Sequence record: OR980947
DNA length: 64,000 bases
DNA from: Shigella phage Tf
Reading direction: 5' to 3' (one strand)
How positions within the stretch are numbered: the stretch's first letter is position 1; every line of letters begins with the position of its first letter. Below the pieces are notes generated by a model that was given only the letters and a program-made list of their open reading frames with translations, ran no database searches and was not told the origin of the DNA. A program made the translations under genes and the position numbers. This document shows positions 2,170-26,694 of the stretch, in pieces.

Positions 2170-3522
2170 ATGTGGAATCCAATTGTTAATGTAGATATTA
2201 CATTGAACACCGCAGGAACTACAAGAGAAGGTTTTGGGCTACCACTATTTTTAGCTTCAACAGATAACTTTGAAGAAAGAGTCCGTGGTTACACTTCCTT
2301 AACTGAAGTTGCTGAAGATTTCGATGAGAGGTCTGCTGCATATAAGGCTGCTAAACAACTTTGGAGTCAGACTCCTAAAGTAACTCAGCTTTATATTGGT
2401 AGACGTGCTATGCAGTACACTGTATCAATTCCTGATGCCGTTACTGAGAGCACTGATTATTCTTTAACTGTAGCTGTGAGCGGTGGAATCTCTCAGCCAT
2501 TCCAGTACACTTCACAGGCATCAGATACCGCTGAGAAGGTGTTACAGCAGATTAAAACACAGATTGAAGCAGAACCTTCTGTAAAAGACCTTGTTACTGT
2601 CAATGTAACTGGTACTGGTGGTTCAGCGACAATGGTAATCACCAAAGCTGGTGTGAACGACTTCGTGAAGGTTACTACTACAGCACAAACAGTGTCAATT
2701 GCAAGTACAACTGCTGACACAGCATCGACTGCTCTGGCAGCTATTGAAGCTTATTCAACTGACTGGTATTTCATTGCAGCGGAAGACAGAACTCAACAGT
2801 TTGTCTTAGCAATGGCTTCTGAGATTCAAGCTCGTAAGAAGATTTTCTTTACAGCTAACTCTGATGTAACAGCCCTACAAGGTACAGAATTAGCCAGTGC
2901 AAATGATGTTCCAGCACAGCTTGCTAAGAATATGTACACTCGTACAGTTTGCTTGTGGCATCACACAGCAGCAGAGGATTATCCAGAAATGGCATACATT
3001 GCTTATGGTGCTCCATATGATGCAGGTTCGATTGCTTGGGGTAATGCACAGTTAACTGGTGTAGCTGCTTCTCTACAGCCAGCTAATAAGAGACCTCTGA
3101 CAAGTATTCAGAAGTCAGCTTTAGATGCACGTCACTGTAACTTTATTGACCTTGATGGTGGTGTTCCAGTGGTTCGTAGAGGGATTACTTCTGGTGGGGA
3201 ATGGATTGATATCATCCGTGGTGTTGACTGGTTAGAATCAGACCTGAAAACTTCTCTGAGAGACTTGCTAATTAACCAGAAGGGTGGTAAGATTACTTAT
3301 GATGATACTGGTATTACCCGTATTCGTCAAGTCATTGAAACCTCTCTGCAAAGAGCAGTCAACAGAAACTTCCTGTCATCTTACACAGTTAATGTTCCTA
3401 AAGCCTCTCAAGTTGCTTTGGCAGACAAGAAAGCACGTATCCTGAAAGACGTTACCTTCGCAGGTGTCTTAGCAGGGGCTATCTTGGATGTTGACTTGAA
3501 AGGTACAGTGGCTTACGAATAA
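2170..3522 (+). CDS. putative tail sheath protein
   Basis: 450 aa ORF directly upstream of a ~150 aa tube-sized ORF, chaperones and tape measure (P2/Mu-like order). Confidence 0.5.
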   Translation: MWNPIVNVDITLNTAGTTREGFGLPLFLASTDNFEERVRGYTSLTEVAEDFDERSAAYKAAKQLWSQTPKVTQLYIGRRAMQYTVSIPDAVTESTDYSLTVAVSGGISQPFQYTSQASDTAEKVLQQIKTQIEAEPSVKDLVTVNVTGTGGSATMVITKAGVNDFVKVTTTAQTVSIASTTADTASTALAAIEAYSTDWYFIAAEDRTQQFVLAMASEIQARKKIFFTANSDVTALQGTELASANDVPAQLAKNMYTRTVCLWHHTAAEDYPEMAYIAYGAPYDAGSIAWGNAQLTGVAASLQPANKRPLTSIQKSALDARHCNFIDLDGGVPVVRRGITSGGEWIDIIRGVDWLESDLKTSLRDLLINQKGGKITYDDTGITRIRQVIETSLQRAVNRNFLSSYTVNVPKASQVALADKKARILKDVTFAGVLAGAILDVDLKGTVAYE

Positions 3523-3537
3523 TAGAGGTAAATTGGA

Positions 3538-3984
3538 ATGGCTATGTATCAGCAATATTCCCCTAAAGACGTTGTATGTAGCTGGAATGGTATTGCCATT
3601 GAAGGCTTTGCCCCAGACTCATTCTTGCGTCTACAGAGAACATCACCACTTATCACACCAGTTGTAGGTGCAGGTGGTCAAGTTGCTCTGACAAGAAATG
3701 CAGACAAGACAGGTACTATTGAGATTGAGCTAATGCAGACTTCTCTCTCTAACCAGATGCTTTCTGCAATTCAAGCTAAACAAGACAATATGGAACTTGA
3801 AGAAGATATCTCTTCTAACTTCGTAATCTACGACCCATCAGGCTCTGTTCTGGCAACTGGTATTAATGCTTGGTTGCAGGAATTACCACAGATTGAACTT
3901 GGTCGTGACCAGAACTCTAAAACTTGGATTTTTGGTTGTGAGAAGTTAGACTACACTTCTACAATTCCAGCGTCAAGTGTTTAA
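3538..3984 (+). CDS. putative tail tube protein
   Basis: 148 aa ORF between sheath-sized gene and chaperone/tape-measure genes; followed by a terminator. Confidence 0.5.
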   Translation: MAMYQQYSPKDVVCSWNGIAIEGFAPDSFLRLQRTSPLITPVVGAGGQVALTRNADKTGTIEIELMQTSLSNQMLSAIQAKQDNMELEEDISSNFVIYDPSGSVLATGINAWLQELPQIELGRDQNSKTWIFGCEKLDYTSTIPASSV

Positions 3985-20059: not shown

Positions 20060-20443
20060 TCAAATACCTGTGCAGCTTCTGTTTTCTAAGAAATACTCAA
20101 CACCATACATAGCTTTTTGCATCAAATCTTCTTTAAACTGGATACGATGATTGAGCATAGCTTGTACATCAATATCGTCATGGTGTTTCTCTTTGATATT
20201 TGCAGATTGTAAGAAATACTCTGCAAGGACACGATACTGATAGTCAGTTACCTTATCAGTCATCTCTGTTAAAGACTCTTCAGAGATTGGTTTAAGTAGC
20301 TCGCCATTAGCTAGAGCAACACCTTTAACAATCTGACAAGTGTCTTCTGGAACACCTGATAAGTTCACATTTGGAAGTTCTGTTGCATTGACTGGTAAAT
20401 TCATTGCCATAACCATTGCAGCAGATAATAAAATCTTTTTCAT
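20060..20443 (-). CDS. secreted/periplasmic protein of unknown function
   Basis: N-terminal signal peptide MKKILLSAAMVMAMNLPVNA. Confidence 0.35.
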   Translation of the reverse strand: MKKILLSAAMVMAMNLPVNATELPNVNLSGVPEDTCQIVKGVALANGELLKPISEESLTEMTDKVTDYQYRVLAEYFLQSANIKEKHHDDIDVQAMLNHRIQFKEDLMQKAMYGVEYFLENRSCTGI

Positions 20444-20731
20444 AATGACCTCAAAGTTATATTAAATTTTGTATTACGTTGAGTATAAAAATAAGCTATA
20501 ACACCTGACTTGTCAACAGACTTTATAGCTTATTTGGCAGATTTTTTATAAGGCTACTGCCATCCTTCCATACATTACCATACCTCACCGGACCCTACCC
20601 GACCGGGCCTCACCCTGCCTTGCCAAACATCACTTAAAAATCCTCTTAGAAGACTCTTAAGTGATGCTGGTGAGTACCCGTTGGTTTATGCTGCTCAGTA
20701 TACTCACCAAATTTTCTATGTCAACAACTTT

Positions 20732-21836
20732 TTATTCGTAATCTCGAATAACTAACCCAACAGGGAACTGTAAAGACCCCTTACGAGTCATCTTCTGGAA
20801 CTGTACCGTCAAAGGTTTCCCGATAAACTCTTCAGGATGTTCAGCAAGATACTGTTTTTTCTCGTGTGTAGTTTTCCATGAAACATCTACAAAGACGTTA
20901 GGAAGAGTCTCTACAACGAACTTGCCATGACCACGTTTATCAGTCTTTACACCAGTCACTTTAAACTCTTCAGTGTGCATCTTCTTGTGCTTAATCAAGA
21001 AGTATGAACGGTGACAACACTCATAGAAGGAGTCTTCAGAGATTGAACGGTACATTGCACCTTCAAACTGAGCTTCAACCCACTTATCATGGGCTTCATC
21101 AAACTCTTCCCAAGAATTTACACGACGAGACTTAACAGGAACAACTTTACAGCCGTCTCTGAAGTCATTCAATGGTGAAGTCTCGATAATATCTCTACGC
21201 TCAGGCCACGTCTTAGTGCTGTCACAGATATCGTACCAGTAGAACTTAAGTAAGTGTCTGTCAGGATTGTCTTCATTTTTAATCATGGAGACAATATCTT
21301 CTAAGTCCCACCCATGAGCATAAATCTCTCCATCAAATTCATCAACATCTTTGTGGAGCCTTAACATTGCCATAATGTCGGGTATTAGTTCAGTAGGGAT
21401 TTTATAAACAGTATTCTCACGAGAGTATGCTGTGAATACACTACCAATGCTTAAGTGTCTTGAAATTCTACAACGTACACCATCAAGCTTCGGTTGGGCA
21501 TCAGCAGGAAATTTCAAATACTTTGCATGGCTAACCTTTGCAGCATCATGAGCAAGCTGTACACCTACCTTTTCAGTATTCTGTGCAGACTCTTTTGTGT
21601 AAGCATAACCTTTGCGGTCAACCTGCTTTTTATACTTAGCAGCAACTTCAAAGAGAGCTTGCTGTTCAGCGTTACGCTCATTCTTTTTACCGATGTTTTT
21701 AGGTTCTGCTGTATACTCTTCAAACATCATCTTGCCATTTTCTTTACCGTAGGTTGTAATAACTTTGTCACCTACAGCAACGCATGACCAGACGTTAAAA
21801 GAGCCATCTTTATTTTGTTTGTACAGAATTGTCATT
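20732..21836 (-). CDS. ATP-dependent DNA ligase
   Basis: Nucleotidyltransferase motif I KLDGVRC (active-site lysine); T7-ligase-like size; probable ATG start at 21836 with gaggt RBS. Confidence 0.7.
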
Positions 21837-22028
21837 TTTAACCTCTGAGTGATACCAAGTGTAACAAGCATTACATGCGTAAAGCTCTAAGTCATTTTTA
21901 TCTGGTTTATGGAAACAGTTTGACCCACAACGACACCGGAATAGTTTACCATCAACACGAAGAATGAATGTTTCAAGCTCACCATCTTCTGTAAGAACTG
22001 CGTTCTTAAATTTATCTTCTACAGTCAT
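21810..22028 (-). CDS. small zinc-ribbon protein
   Basis: CRCGSNC ... CNAC cysteine motifs. Confidence 0.3.
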   Translation of the reverse strand: MTVEDKFKNAVLTEDGELETFILRVDGKLFRCRCGSNCFHKPDKNDLELYACNACYTWYHSEVKNDNSVQTK

Positions 22029-24207: not shown

Positions 24208-24518
24208 CATCTGGTCAATACACTCGCAAGGTGTACCAGTTCTCTTATGAACTTCTCCGCATTTCTACGGAGTGTCGGACTATATCACGTAGTAGTAATA
24301 CTACCGTTGCACTTGGGAATGGTCATTAGCTTACCACCCTACTCTACTCAGTTCATACATTAAGTATGCTTTTCGATAGTCTCTGAACGTTTCTCTGTTA
24401 GGAATCTCTATAGTTATGTTATTTGCTTTAGGAGTCCTAACAGAGACTTCGCTGCTGATTACCATATCTTTACAGACTTAGGCTTCCAGCAATTCACAAC
24501 GTTTTACATGCGCCACTG
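24208..24518 (-). ncRNA. group I self-splicing intron (ORF-less) in DNA polymerase gene
   Basis: Conserved group I elements on the minus-strand RNA: P gaattgctggaa, Q aatcagcagc, R gttcagagacta, S gatatagtcc; 5' splice after U, terminal G at 3' end; joining exons gives IYALLFGAGDEK. Confidence 0.75.
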
Positions 24519-26694
24519 ACGCATAGATACCATTCTTAGCCTTCTTGCGGCCTTTACTAATCTCATGAAGAAGATTCTCATCCTGAGTAGCTCGACAAGT
24601 CAAGATGTCCTGCTCATCATTCAAGCTAAAGTAAATACTGTTCAGTGTATGTGCATCAGTCCCTGAATAGACAACGTACAGGTCATTCTCAGAGTCATAG
24701 CGCAGGTACTTATCAATCTCTGGGTTGAGGTACTCATCAAAATGTTTACAGTAATAACGTCCATCTTCTTGACGAATAAACTCAATCTCTTCTTTACCTT
24801 GCGTTACCGCTTTGGTGAACTCTTTATCACCCATAAAGTTACAAAGTAGAACTAACTGGGCTGAGTTCATATCAACAGAGACTACGTTGGTTCCCTCTTC
24901 ACAAATCCACACCTCCCTCATAGGTGCTCCATAGACAGCAGCACCAGACGGTACGTTTACAATACCATATTGTGTCATTCGTCCAGTTGAAGTACCAAAC
25001 ACCATTGCACCAGCACTAAGGCGACCATCAGGACGAATCTGGTTCAACCAACCTTTTTCACCATCCTTTGAGTTCTCAATAGTTCTGCGTCGGTGCATCA
25101 AAGTATAGTACTTAGCAATCTTCTGTCCAAGCTCACCTTCAATCGTATCATAAGAAGACTCAGTAAGTTTTGGTGAAGTACGGATTAAGCAAGGTTCAAG
25201 CAAATCTGTGTACTTCTTCACAGACCAGTTATGCTCAATGTACTGTACACCTTCATGTTCAACATAGCTCAAACCACACCGCTCAACCATTTCCTGCCAC
25301 TTAGGATGTTTTGTAATCATCTTTTTATTGTCTTTGAAACGACAAACTTTGACAGGGCGACCGTCTGAGTCTTTCTTGTAGTTCCAGTCATCTGGAATCC
25401 AACCAACTGATTTCAAGTAGTCTTTAACAACTGCTACCTGAGTCATACGAGAAACTTCAAAATCAATTGGTGTATATGGTGCATCAATCAAACCTGTGTA
25501 GCGACTTGACTCAAGTTCAAAGTGGTTAACAACGTGACTGTTATAGTACTTCACAGTTTTAACTGTTTTTACTGGCTTCCAGTCTTTGCATTTCTTACCA
25601 ATCTTTGCATTCAACTCATTGCAAATTGCACGAGCATCCTTCATTGCTACAAAGCCTTCCTTGTACTCTTCACCAGTTACAGAGTTGGTTGGTGTATAGC
25701 AATTTCTCTTTTCAATGTTAAAAATCTTTGTAGTTGGCTTACCAAATGGCTTGATTTCATATGTCTGCATCTCACCGTTACGTACCTGCTGACGATACTT
25801 TGTCTTAGGGTACTTGGTAATTCTTTTCAGTCCATCTGCATGACCAAATGTTTCAACATACTCATTCCAAGCTTTTGCAAACTCTTCTCCAGTGACTTTA
25901 CCTTTGGTCTTAATAGTTGGAGGAAGATGTGGTTCAACTTCTGAAGCAAGCTCATTAGTCAACTTGTCAAGTTCCTTTACATGGAACTCCATAAGTTCTT
26001 TATCAGCTTTCCAACCATTGATAGCCTGTTGACTCATCCAGAAAGATGTTTCTTTAGCTCGCATGTAGGTTTCATAAGTGTCTATGCCACACTTCTTAAG
26101 CTTGAGATACTCATTATCAAGTGCCCGTTTAGTTTTGGCGTTAATACGGATATCTTCTACAACACGAGTGAAGATTTCTGCATTCCACACACCCCAATGC
26201 TCAATCTCTGGTTTACGAACACCAACACGAGCACCCCATGCAGCCAAACCATGAGCACCTTTATAACCCTTTGGAGTTGGTCTATCCATCCACTGAACAC
26301 GAGACTGGATAAGAGAGTCCTGAAAGAAATTACTCCACGGTTTACACTTTGGGTTATCAAAGTTCCATAAATCAGGTGCAATGTGATTGAAAACCCACCA
26401 GTCATAACCGAGACCGTTATGGATGCAAAGACGTTTTGCCTTTAACGCAAATTCAACGCCTTCACGCAAACCACCTTTAATGTACTTGGTATACTTGTGA
26501 CCGAGGATAGGCTCATCTGTAAAGACCCATACAGGCGGCTCTTCATCGTCAGATTTATAGTCTGCGAAAGCCATTACGTGCACTTTAGTGAACTCAAGGA
26601 GTAAACCATCAGTTTCTGTATCACCAACCAAATGTAAGTTTTTAAAATCTACGTTTTCCATTTCTACTCCCTCTAAATCATTAACCTCATACAT
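24519..26694 (-). CDS. DNA polymerase (family A), exon 1 with 3'-5' exonuclease domain
   Basis: Exo I motif GDTETDG; pol motif A VSVDMNSAQL; motif B start RKKAKNGIYA; tracked ORF runs 13 codons into the intron before a stop; alternative start at 26661 with gaggga RBS. Confidence 0.8.

Follow-up and report, generated by a model that had tools for sequence, protein, structure and literature searches.

A probable solo vrRNA gene of the type II VIPR kind downstream of the DNA ligase gene of Shigella phage Tf

Results

The intergenic region

The DNA analyzed in this study is a 64,000-nt stretch (hereafter, the window) of Shigella phage Tf, a Felix O1-like phage (Felixounavirus, Ounavirinae) with about 22 kb of its genome outside the window. 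Our subject is a 288-bp gap at 20444-20731, situated, exactly as the original prediction had it, downstream of the ligase gene; it separates the open reading frame (ORF) of a DNA ligase from an ORF of 127 amino acids, both on the minus strand. In our reading, the gap probably holds a single vrRNA gene, encoding a pentamer-repeat guide RNA of the kind used by the newly reported VIPR systems, and has no vipr gene beside it. The layout of the locus is ligase gene, promoter P1, leader hairpins 1 and 2, one array of pentamers, a tail (tail C), promoter P2, and the 127-aa gene (Table 1).

Table 1. Positions of the features in and around the ligase-proximal gap
Feature	Position	Strand	Details
ATP-dependent DNA ligase gene	20732..21871	-	Precedes the VIPR locus in SUSP1 and Felixounavirus relatives
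Promoter P1	20724-20697	-	TTGACA (20724-20719), 16-nt spacer, TATACT (20702-20697)
Leader hairpin 1	20669..20708	-	GGTGAGTA...TACTCACC; -12.4 kcal/mol; conserved in relatives
Leader hairpin 2	20628..20666	-	CAUCACUUAAGAGUCUUC-UAA-GAGGAUUUUUAAGUGAUG; 18 contiguous pairs, several G-U
Probable vrRNA guide array	20570..20629	-	12 pentamer units, GGY+NN
Probable vrRNA 3' tail	20536..20569	-	34 nt, GGAAGGAUGGCAGUAGCCUUAUAAAAAAUCUGCC / GGAAGGATGGCAGTAGCCTTATAAAAAATCTGCC; H-type pseudoknot
AU-rich hairpin and U run	20489..20535	-	AAAUAAGCUAUAA...UUAUAGCUUAUUU; -15.8 kcal/mol; then UUUUUAU
Promoter P2	20516-20488	-	TTGACA (20516-20511), 17-nt spacer, TATTTT (20493-20488); serves the 127-aa gene
Ribosome-binding site of the 127-aa gene	20452-20449	-	GAGG; ATG at 20443
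127-aa ORF	20060..20443	-	Ortholog of SUSP1 agp037, the gene after the VIPR locus
Group I catalytic intron (RF00028)	24255-24530	-	62.9 bits, E = 1.4e-13, full-length model match

The atypical C-rich composition ascribed to the gap by the original prediction is borne out (GC content 0.52 and GC skew -0.54 at 20550-20649, with neighboring DNA at a GC content of about 0.35-0.42), and so are the three hairpins that it had listed: ataagctata/tatagcttat is the AU-rich hairpin of Table 1, atcacttaa/ttaagtgat is leader hairpin 2, and ggtgagta/tactcacc is leader hairpin 1. Minus-strand RNA of the segment 20480-20695 folds with a z-score of -4.8 relative to shuffles. The coding potential of the gap is limited to ORFs of 21-26 aa that are not conserved as coding sequence; no tRNA or tmRNA was found in it by ARAGORN, and no Rfam family reached the gathering threshold there, the sole match (E = 3.3) being a chance one. 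A noncoding and structured region is supported by these observations.

The pentamer tract and its 3' tail

Read on the minus strand, the C-rich tract resolves into twelve pentamers: TGTTT GGCAA GGCAG GGTGA GGCCC GGTCG GGTAG GGTCC GGTGA GGTAT GGTAA TGTAT. The triplet GGY (Y, a pyrimidine; N below, any base) opens 10 of the 12 units, which corresponds to a GG integrity of 0.83, and the two remaining bases of the units spell the code TT AA AG GA CC CG AG CC GA AT AA AT. The cctcacc and accctacc motifs noticed originally are present, but the strict 5-nt period behind them, with GG in phase in 10 out of 10 consecutive minus-strand units, had been missed. Mononucleotide (base-composition-preserving) shuffles of the whole window yielded in-phase GG runs of at most 4-6; nowhere in the rest of the 64 kb does such a run reach 7, and the tract is not repeated elsewhere in the window.

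Numerous relatives of this region are available: a 2.5-kb query around it matched 259 phage records (80-96% identity), and one of 18 kb matched 264. Alignment of 11 relatives shows a near-invariant leader, tail, and P2; within the tract the number of units and the last two bases of each unit are hypervariable, and the GGT/GGC phase is kept. Over 856 units from 70 distinct related arrays, the positions G, G, and Y carry 1.04, 1.86, and 1.51 bits of information, and the two N positions only 0.08 and 0.12. Among 27 related loci there are from zero to four arrays between the ligase and the 127-aa genes, and the G-rich strand is always the transcribed one. The covariance analysis across related phages that had been proposed as a check did lead to the identity of the element. 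Conservation in relatives holds for the GGY phase, the tail, and the leader and does not extend to the NN positions; a lack of sequence conservation, named originally as grounds for rejection, would be a misleading criterion here, as the NN positions appear to be hypervariable by design.

The 34-nt tail that follows the tract can form all nine pairs of a pseudoknot, four in stem S1 (AAGG/CCUU) and five in stem S2 (GGCAG/CUGCC). The structure was tested on a gapless alignment of 16 distinct phage and satellite tails, with S1 in columns 3-6/17-20 and S2 in columns 9-13/30-34. Pairing is retained in 98.6% of the pseudoknot cells, compared with 30-46% in slid controls; eight of the nine pairs have changes on both sides, and no shuffle attains the observed covariation score.

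Likeness to the vrRNA genes of VIPR systems

VIPR systems were described in a preprint dated 25 June 2026 as a non-contiguous code of RNA-guided DNA recognition, proposed to be older than CRISPR (bioRxiv 10.64898/2026.04.26.720920). Their Vipr, of about 20 kDa, is a small protein of the RAMP type that is accompanied by an accessory protein, Vap, and their vrRNA is an RNA of about 100 nt with 9-16 YNNGG repeats, in which GGY is conserved and NN hypervariable, and with an invariant 3' tail of about 40 nt that is pseudoknotted in the SUSP1 clade; the vrRNA genes lie in intergenic regions, flanking vipr and its vap partner (bioRxiv 10.64898/2026.04.26.720920). Vipr subunits assemble on the repeat tract, where the protein holds the GGY triplets and the NN dinucleotides pair with double-stranded DNA reading NNxNNx..., with one base skipped, which is usually a codon wobble position (bioRxiv 10.64898/2026.04.26.720920). 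Where the Vipr-vrRNA complex binds, transcription of competing elements is repressed; most SUSP1-clade guides are directed at a satellite of the phage, and published targets cover only 20 of 41 guides (bioRxiv 10.64898/2026.04.26.720920). Expression of the vrRNA, its binding to and co-purification with Vipr, and repression have been shown in SUSP1, where the vrRNA genes are arranged as "one upstream, three downstream"; satellite-borne vrRNAs have been reported as well (bioRxiv 10.64898/2026.04.26.720920).

Escherichia phage SUSP1, the model phage of VIPR, belongs to Ounavirinae, the same subfamily as the phage studied here. Its locus consists of the ligase gene, P1, hairpins 1 and 2 and vrRNA1 (array and tail), the vipr gene agp039 (195 aa), the vap1 gene agp038 (146 aa), a terminator, three array-tail units, and agp037, an order that fits the published arrangement. 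A two-gene cassette encoding proteins of 195-200 and 146 aa occupies the place between the ligase and the 127-aa genes in many relatives, and the Felixounavirus versions of these two proteins share 97.9% and 99.3% identity with agp039 and agp038, respectively. On both sides the cassette is flanked by composite units of the form hairpin-(GGYNN)n-tail, at most three in tandem.

The gap in the window has the same anatomy. Its 12 units fall within the published range of 9-16, and its tail has the published pseudoknot. The closest single match is the last downstream vrRNA of SUSP1, which shares a 12-unit GGY/NN tract, an identical tail, the same preceding hairpin, P2, and the downstream gene; the leader, composed of P1 and hairpins 1 and 2, is that of SUSP1 vrRNA1. 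The element is therefore a homolog of an RNA gene of a published kind. The G-richness of the transcribed strand comes from the pentamers of a VIPR guide RNA, with their GGY/NN code, and the sense of the RNA is assigned by the invariable placement of the G-rich strand of the arrays on the transcribed strand and by the greater stability of hairpin 2 as sense RNA. A discrete small RNA is very probably specified on the transcribed strand. The original idea of a structured small RNA was right in spirit; its other part, the G-quadruplex, is not supported.

No canonical G-quadruplex motif (four runs of three or more G with loops of 1-7 nt, relaxed to 1-12 nt) was found by a regular-expression scan on either strand of the entire window; the tract has only three GGG runs. 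Nevertheless, one could suppose that a P1 transcript acts through a G-quadruplex or an R-loop on termination, mRNA stability, or replication priming, as at the ColE1 and T4 origins, given that downstream of a strong promoter the non-template strand is G-rich, with an AT-rich stretch beyond it, and that two-tetrad G2 patterns do occur. We find this scarcely credible, since neither structure needs a conserved pyrimidine after GG or a strict 5-nt phase, as many as four of these arrays per locus stand in tandem around a RAMP-like gene, and the published VIPR mechanism accounts for every feature. Several early hypotheses were dropped because VIPR accounts for the code of the pentamers, for the tail, and for the RAMP-like gene that flanks the arrays: an array of the TRAP-binding type, an R-loop or replication origin, an RNA G-quadruplex, a C-rich rut site for antisense transcripts, and a recombination hot spot.

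Absence of vipr from the window and probable origin of the solo state

Published vrRNA genes flank vipr and vap; the gene in the window has no such neighbors, and its membership in the vrRNA class rests on homology. No homolog of the 195-aa or the 146-aa protein was found by tblastn in the 64-kb window (best E = 3.3). The nearest complete relative, EC6, has the same solo single-array layout, and neither cassette protein was found anywhere in its complete genome. In addition, a search of 5,426 complete E. coli genomes with vipr DNA gave no match.

In vipr-positive relatives, copies of hairpin 2 and of the array are present on both sides of the vipr-vap cassette. The layout of the window equals that of a vipr-positive relative (for example, L020) from which everything between the two copies of hairpin 2 has been removed, and this match points to a deletion by recombination between repeats. 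From the comparison of layouts we infer that the solo state arose by a deletion between the hairpin 2 copies flanking the cassette; hairpin 2 would then be the likely junction of recombination and deletion.

Vipr was found in 130 phage records, essentially once in each (131 places); about 118 of these records are among the approximately 264 of Ounavirinae (~45%). Within Felix O1-like phages it is present in 77 of 120 Escherichia-phage records and in 17 of 80 Salmonella-phage records. Distant Vipr homologs (32-43% identity) occur in Pseudomonas, Mycobacterium, Gordonia, and Listonella phages. The arrays range wider still: a scan of IMG/VR for (GGTNN)6GGT returned at least 120 contigs, many of them from unrelated viruses with tandem noncoding degenerate-spacer arrays that have conserved punctuation of their own, and hence the class of elements is widespread. 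Contigs such as L037 (minus strand, 3400-3840), L047 (2200-3400), L125, L132, L044, and L036, among others, contain from three to more than ten tandem GGT/NN arrays at GC contents of 0.29-0.63; the punctuation is GGCTAATGGGT in L037 and GGAATGGTTTAATGAATTTAATTT in L047, and the arrays of L132 have 28-40 units, above the published 9-16. These unrelated arrays are probably other types of VIPR.

Promoters, hairpins, and the predicted transcript

P1 matches the sigma-70 consensus at 11 of 12 positions and begins 8 nt past the stop codon of the ligase gene. It is near-identical in the 11 aligned relatives and in SUSP1; in SUSP1 and the vipr-positive relatives it precedes vrRNA1-vipr-vap1. The 5' arm of hairpin 1 overlaps the -10 box of P1, and hence this hairpin is complete only in read-through transcripts from the ligase gene. 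Hairpin 2, a repeated module upstream of the vrRNA arrays in relatives, is strand-specific, its free energy being -21.1 kcal/mol as minus-strand RNA versus only -9.9 kcal/mol as plus-strand RNA; in phage ASO1B it is labeled "terminator" (TransTermHP). The AU-rich hairpin with its U run looks like the terminator of the vrRNA transcript. It does not pass a scan for the intrinsic terminator consensus requiring at least three G-C pairs, which found no terminator in the segment 19800-21400. P2 lies within the loop and the 3' side of this hairpin, with its -35 box in the loop, and the homologous site of ASO1B is annotated as "promoter".

Transcription from P1, or read-through from the ligase gene, would thus produce a leader with two hairpins, the twelve GGY/NN pentamers, and the 34-nt pseudoknotted tail, and would probably end at the AU-rich hairpin and U run. 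By analogy with SUSP1, the mature RNA may comprise about 96 nt (~20629-20534, minus strand). Transcription in this phage, processing, the ~96-nt product, and the present inactivity of the RNA are all presumed.

The targeting rule and the search for a target

The threshold for a target, a match at 0.80 or more of the NN positions, was taken from the preprint. When 70 unique guides from Felixounavirus relatives and SUSP1 were compared with 13 E. coli satellite loci, 54 guides attained this threshold with a skip of 1 nt, as opposed to 3, 2, and 5 guides with skips of 0, 2, and 3 nt, respectively. This result confirms the published 1-nt-skip rule on loci retrieved independently of the preprint data set, and validates the method of target search.

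It also bears on the notion that the gap is an ordinary regulatory stretch between genes, made up of a terminator and promoters. The G-rich tract would in that case lack any function as RNA and be either a pentanucleotide microsatellite, neutral and prone to slippage, or a hot spot of recombination. The gap does have promoter-like and terminator-like elements, so labeled in ASO1B; the number of units differs among relatives, and the modules border a variable cassette, all as this notion would have it. Yet 1-1.9 bits at GGY next to free NN positions would not be expected under neutrality, and the constant placement on the transcribed strand, the covarying pseudoknot after the tract, and the guide matches to satellite genes that appear with a single skip length only are left unexplained, making this notion very improbable.

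The satellite, located via its baseplate gene, is an island of ~12 kb present in 474 of the 5,426 complete E. coli genomes; the guides of relatives target chiefly this island. The satellite loci examined (L150-L156 and L165-L176) are inserted between yciI and tonB or inside a DUF72 gene adjoining yecD; they encode a tape-measure protein, a Dit-like baseplate protein, a Dam methylase, and serine recombinases, often together with an HNH gene or insertion sequence (IS) elements. The Dam protein (220 aa; for example, L156 4714-5376; P0001-P0120) is very diverse in its alleles within E. coli: it has 521 clusters at E <= 1e-20, of which the best 120 are only 85-94% mutually identical, and residues 143-154 form a hypervariable peptide. 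Such a pattern could result from an arms race with guides that are blind to wobble positions. Some satellites contain vrRNA-like arrays themselves (L153, at ~20345-20409 on the minus strand, L167, and L169), in the tail of which S2 is changed in a compensatory manner (GUCG/CGAC versus GGUAG/CUACC). No vipr or vap homologs were found in the 19 satellite loci.

For the guide of the window, the search covered the window itself, IMG/VR, GTDB representative genomes, the satellites, and metagenomes, with Salmonella and the full E. coli pangenomes outside its scope. There is no self-target in the 64 kb (maximum 16/24); nothing above 19/24 was found in IMG/VR with one 10-unit and two 8-unit patterns, and the two matches in GTDB representative genomes (Thauera and Pseudarthrobacter) are at the level of chance. 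A metagenome site at 22/24 was likewise rejected as a chance match: it is antisense, lies on a contig of 67% GC from an unrelated organism, and had 19 of its positions forced by the search pattern. The best score against the 19 satellite loci is 18/24 (0.75), at a recurrent in-frame site at codon 143 of the satellite Dam methylase gene, which encodes the hypervariable peptide FK[S/K/T]E[P/S/T]R[K/R]HEITQ. However, this site is not evidence of a target, because the score equals the maximum of shuffled guides. Given 120 satellite Dam alleles, the best score possible for this guide is 20/24, and real codons give 18. By comparison, the guides of the vipr-less phages JLBYU28 and L018 match the same gene at codons 94-95 (0.88-0.91 of NN positions).

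Neighboring genes

The 127-aa protein has a signal-peptide-like N-terminal segment (MKKILLSAAMVMAMNLPVNA...). It is conserved at 94-98% identity among relatives, in all of which its gene adjoins the VIPR locus; neither this protein nor the cassette proteins have significant matches in Pfam. The group I intron of Table 1 lies in the block of replication genes a few kb upstream of the ligase gene. The ligase itself is annotated in two or three pieces in several relatives, where the BLAST match is interrupted by 0.3-2 kb of extra DNA, which suggests insertions, putatively an intron or a homing-endonuclease gene, in or near the ligase genes of those phages and none in the window. Small insertions between the ligase stop codon and P1 were also observed in relatives, one of ~150 nt (L003, L004, and L024) and one of ~180 nt (L007, L027, L017, and L148 of SUSP1); one of them encodes a hydrophobic peptide of 48 aa, which appears as a 147-nt coding sequence in the annotation of UAB_Phi87. 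The window has neither of the two.

Discussion

The anatomy of the gap, homology and synteny with SUSP1, covariation in the pseudoknot, the absence of vipr, and the skip rule observed in relatives jointly lead us to conclude, with good confidence, that the region is one type II VIPR vrRNA gene of the SUSP1 clade, which stands solo, is probably transcribed, and would have no activity without Vipr provided in trans. This solo state is common in Felix O1-like phages and is not discussed in the preprint. The text of the latter does not contain the words "orphan" or "Felix", nor does it mention vrRNAs of vipr-less phages (bioRxiv 10.64898/2026.04.26.720920).

Several considerations weigh against this conclusion in one or another of its parts. 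The promoter, the processing, and the ~96-nt product are predictions, and the source identifying the element is a preprint. The 22 kb outside the window leave some room for a vipr gene elsewhere in the genome; on the other hand, vipr is always at this locus in SUSP1 and the approximately 17 vipr-positive loci inspected, and EC6 has none. The GG integrity of the array (0.83) compares with means of 0.78 for arrays of vipr-positive and 0.72 for those of vipr-less phages, which do not differ significantly (p = 0.13), and the tail and the promoter are perfect; such intactness would not be expected of an old relic and leaves space for activity in trans. No target of the guide attains the 0.80 threshold; the search for one did not extend to Salmonella pangenomes, and most single-array phages infect Salmonella. 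The relic side of the conclusion, in turn, agrees with the lack of Vipr and of a target, with the degeneration of several solo arrays (0.55), and with the scarcity of vipr in Salmonella phages.

The most substantial alternative is that the solo vrRNA works in trans, either with Vipr borrowed from a co-infecting vipr-positive relative, which would spare the phage the cost of the protein, or as a decoy that titrates the Vipr of a competitor, that is, as an RNA anti-VIPR. The array, tail, and promoter of the window are intact, with a GG integrity above the mean of vipr-linked arrays. At least seven different guides occur among 11 single-array vipr-less genomes, and hence the solo state is not one decaying relic; repeated recent deletions could, however, account for this diversity too. 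Vipr-less phages with one or two arrays, namely JLBYU28, L018, L004, L007, L013, and L027, match satellites at 0.86-0.95, several of them carrying two arrays; still, of the 11 single-array genomes only JLBYU28 has a guide above background (0.88), the other ten guides, that of the window included, having no satellite match above shuffled controls. The solo arrays of EC6, Si3, and BPS17L1 are degenerate, with a GG integrity of 0.55. The absence of vipr DNA from the complete E. coli genomes makes a host-borne supply of SUSP1-clade Vipr unlikely, and dependence on co-infection is a conjecture. A precedent exists in the E. coli satellites that have a vrRNA-like array with a compensated tail and no vipr, and satellite vrRNAs are published (bioRxiv 10.64898/2026.04.26.720920). 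On balance we regard use in trans as unlikely.

Virus-borne mini-CRISPR arrays without effectors of their own and RNA anti-CRISPRs are parallels to such a use. It is a doubtful proposition that solo vrRNAs are a deliberate strategy of the Vipr-less Felix O1-like phages and not debris. Were it true, it would add an extra layer of parasitism or counter-defense to VIPR, and the vipr-less satellites with vrRNAs would be following the same strategy. The question of whether these genes are relics, borrowers in trans, or decoys concerns many phages: more than half of the Felix O1-like phages sequenced are Vipr-less, and such phages still have one or two vrRNA genes driven by a promoter.

The VIPR locus is widespread in the Felix O1 group, to which classical phages of Salmonella typing and biocontrol belong. 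For annotation, gaps of the kind described here, C-rich and structured, should be labeled as vrRNA genes; current annotations leave them blank or miscall them as small ORFs.

In comparison with SUSP1, the window lacks vipr and vap1, has a single vrRNA gene in place of one plus three, and differs in its NN code, for which no natural target was found. Among other repeat arrays, the leaders of Bacillus trp genes have about 11 (G/U)AG triplets separated by 2-3 free nucleotides, each repeat being bound by one subunit of TRAP. In vrRNA arrays, by contrast, the triplet is GGY, the spacers carry the information for pairing with the target, the protein is of the RAMP type, and the target is DNA. "Promoter-early stem-loop" (PeSL) cassettes of T4-type phages, in which repeated hairpin and promoter modules flank variable genes, resemble the VIPR locus in having a cassette that some relatives have and others lack, a layout compatible with its loss or gain by recombination between the repeats; the likeness is limited to the way in which the cassette may be lost, as the VIPR modules are themselves functional RNA genes.

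Finally, CRISPR RNA also combines a variable guide with a conserved structured handle and is used by a RAMP-type protein. However, the VIPR guide is non-contiguous, occupying two of every five nucleotides with a 1-nt skip on the target, and a vrRNA has no repeat-spacer units, no adaptation by Cas1 and Cas2, and no protospacer-adjacent motif; no CRISPR repeats are present in the gap. Orphan CRISPR arrays and virus-borne mini-arrays, which lack cas genes, can likewise exist either as relics or as users of effectors made elsewhere.

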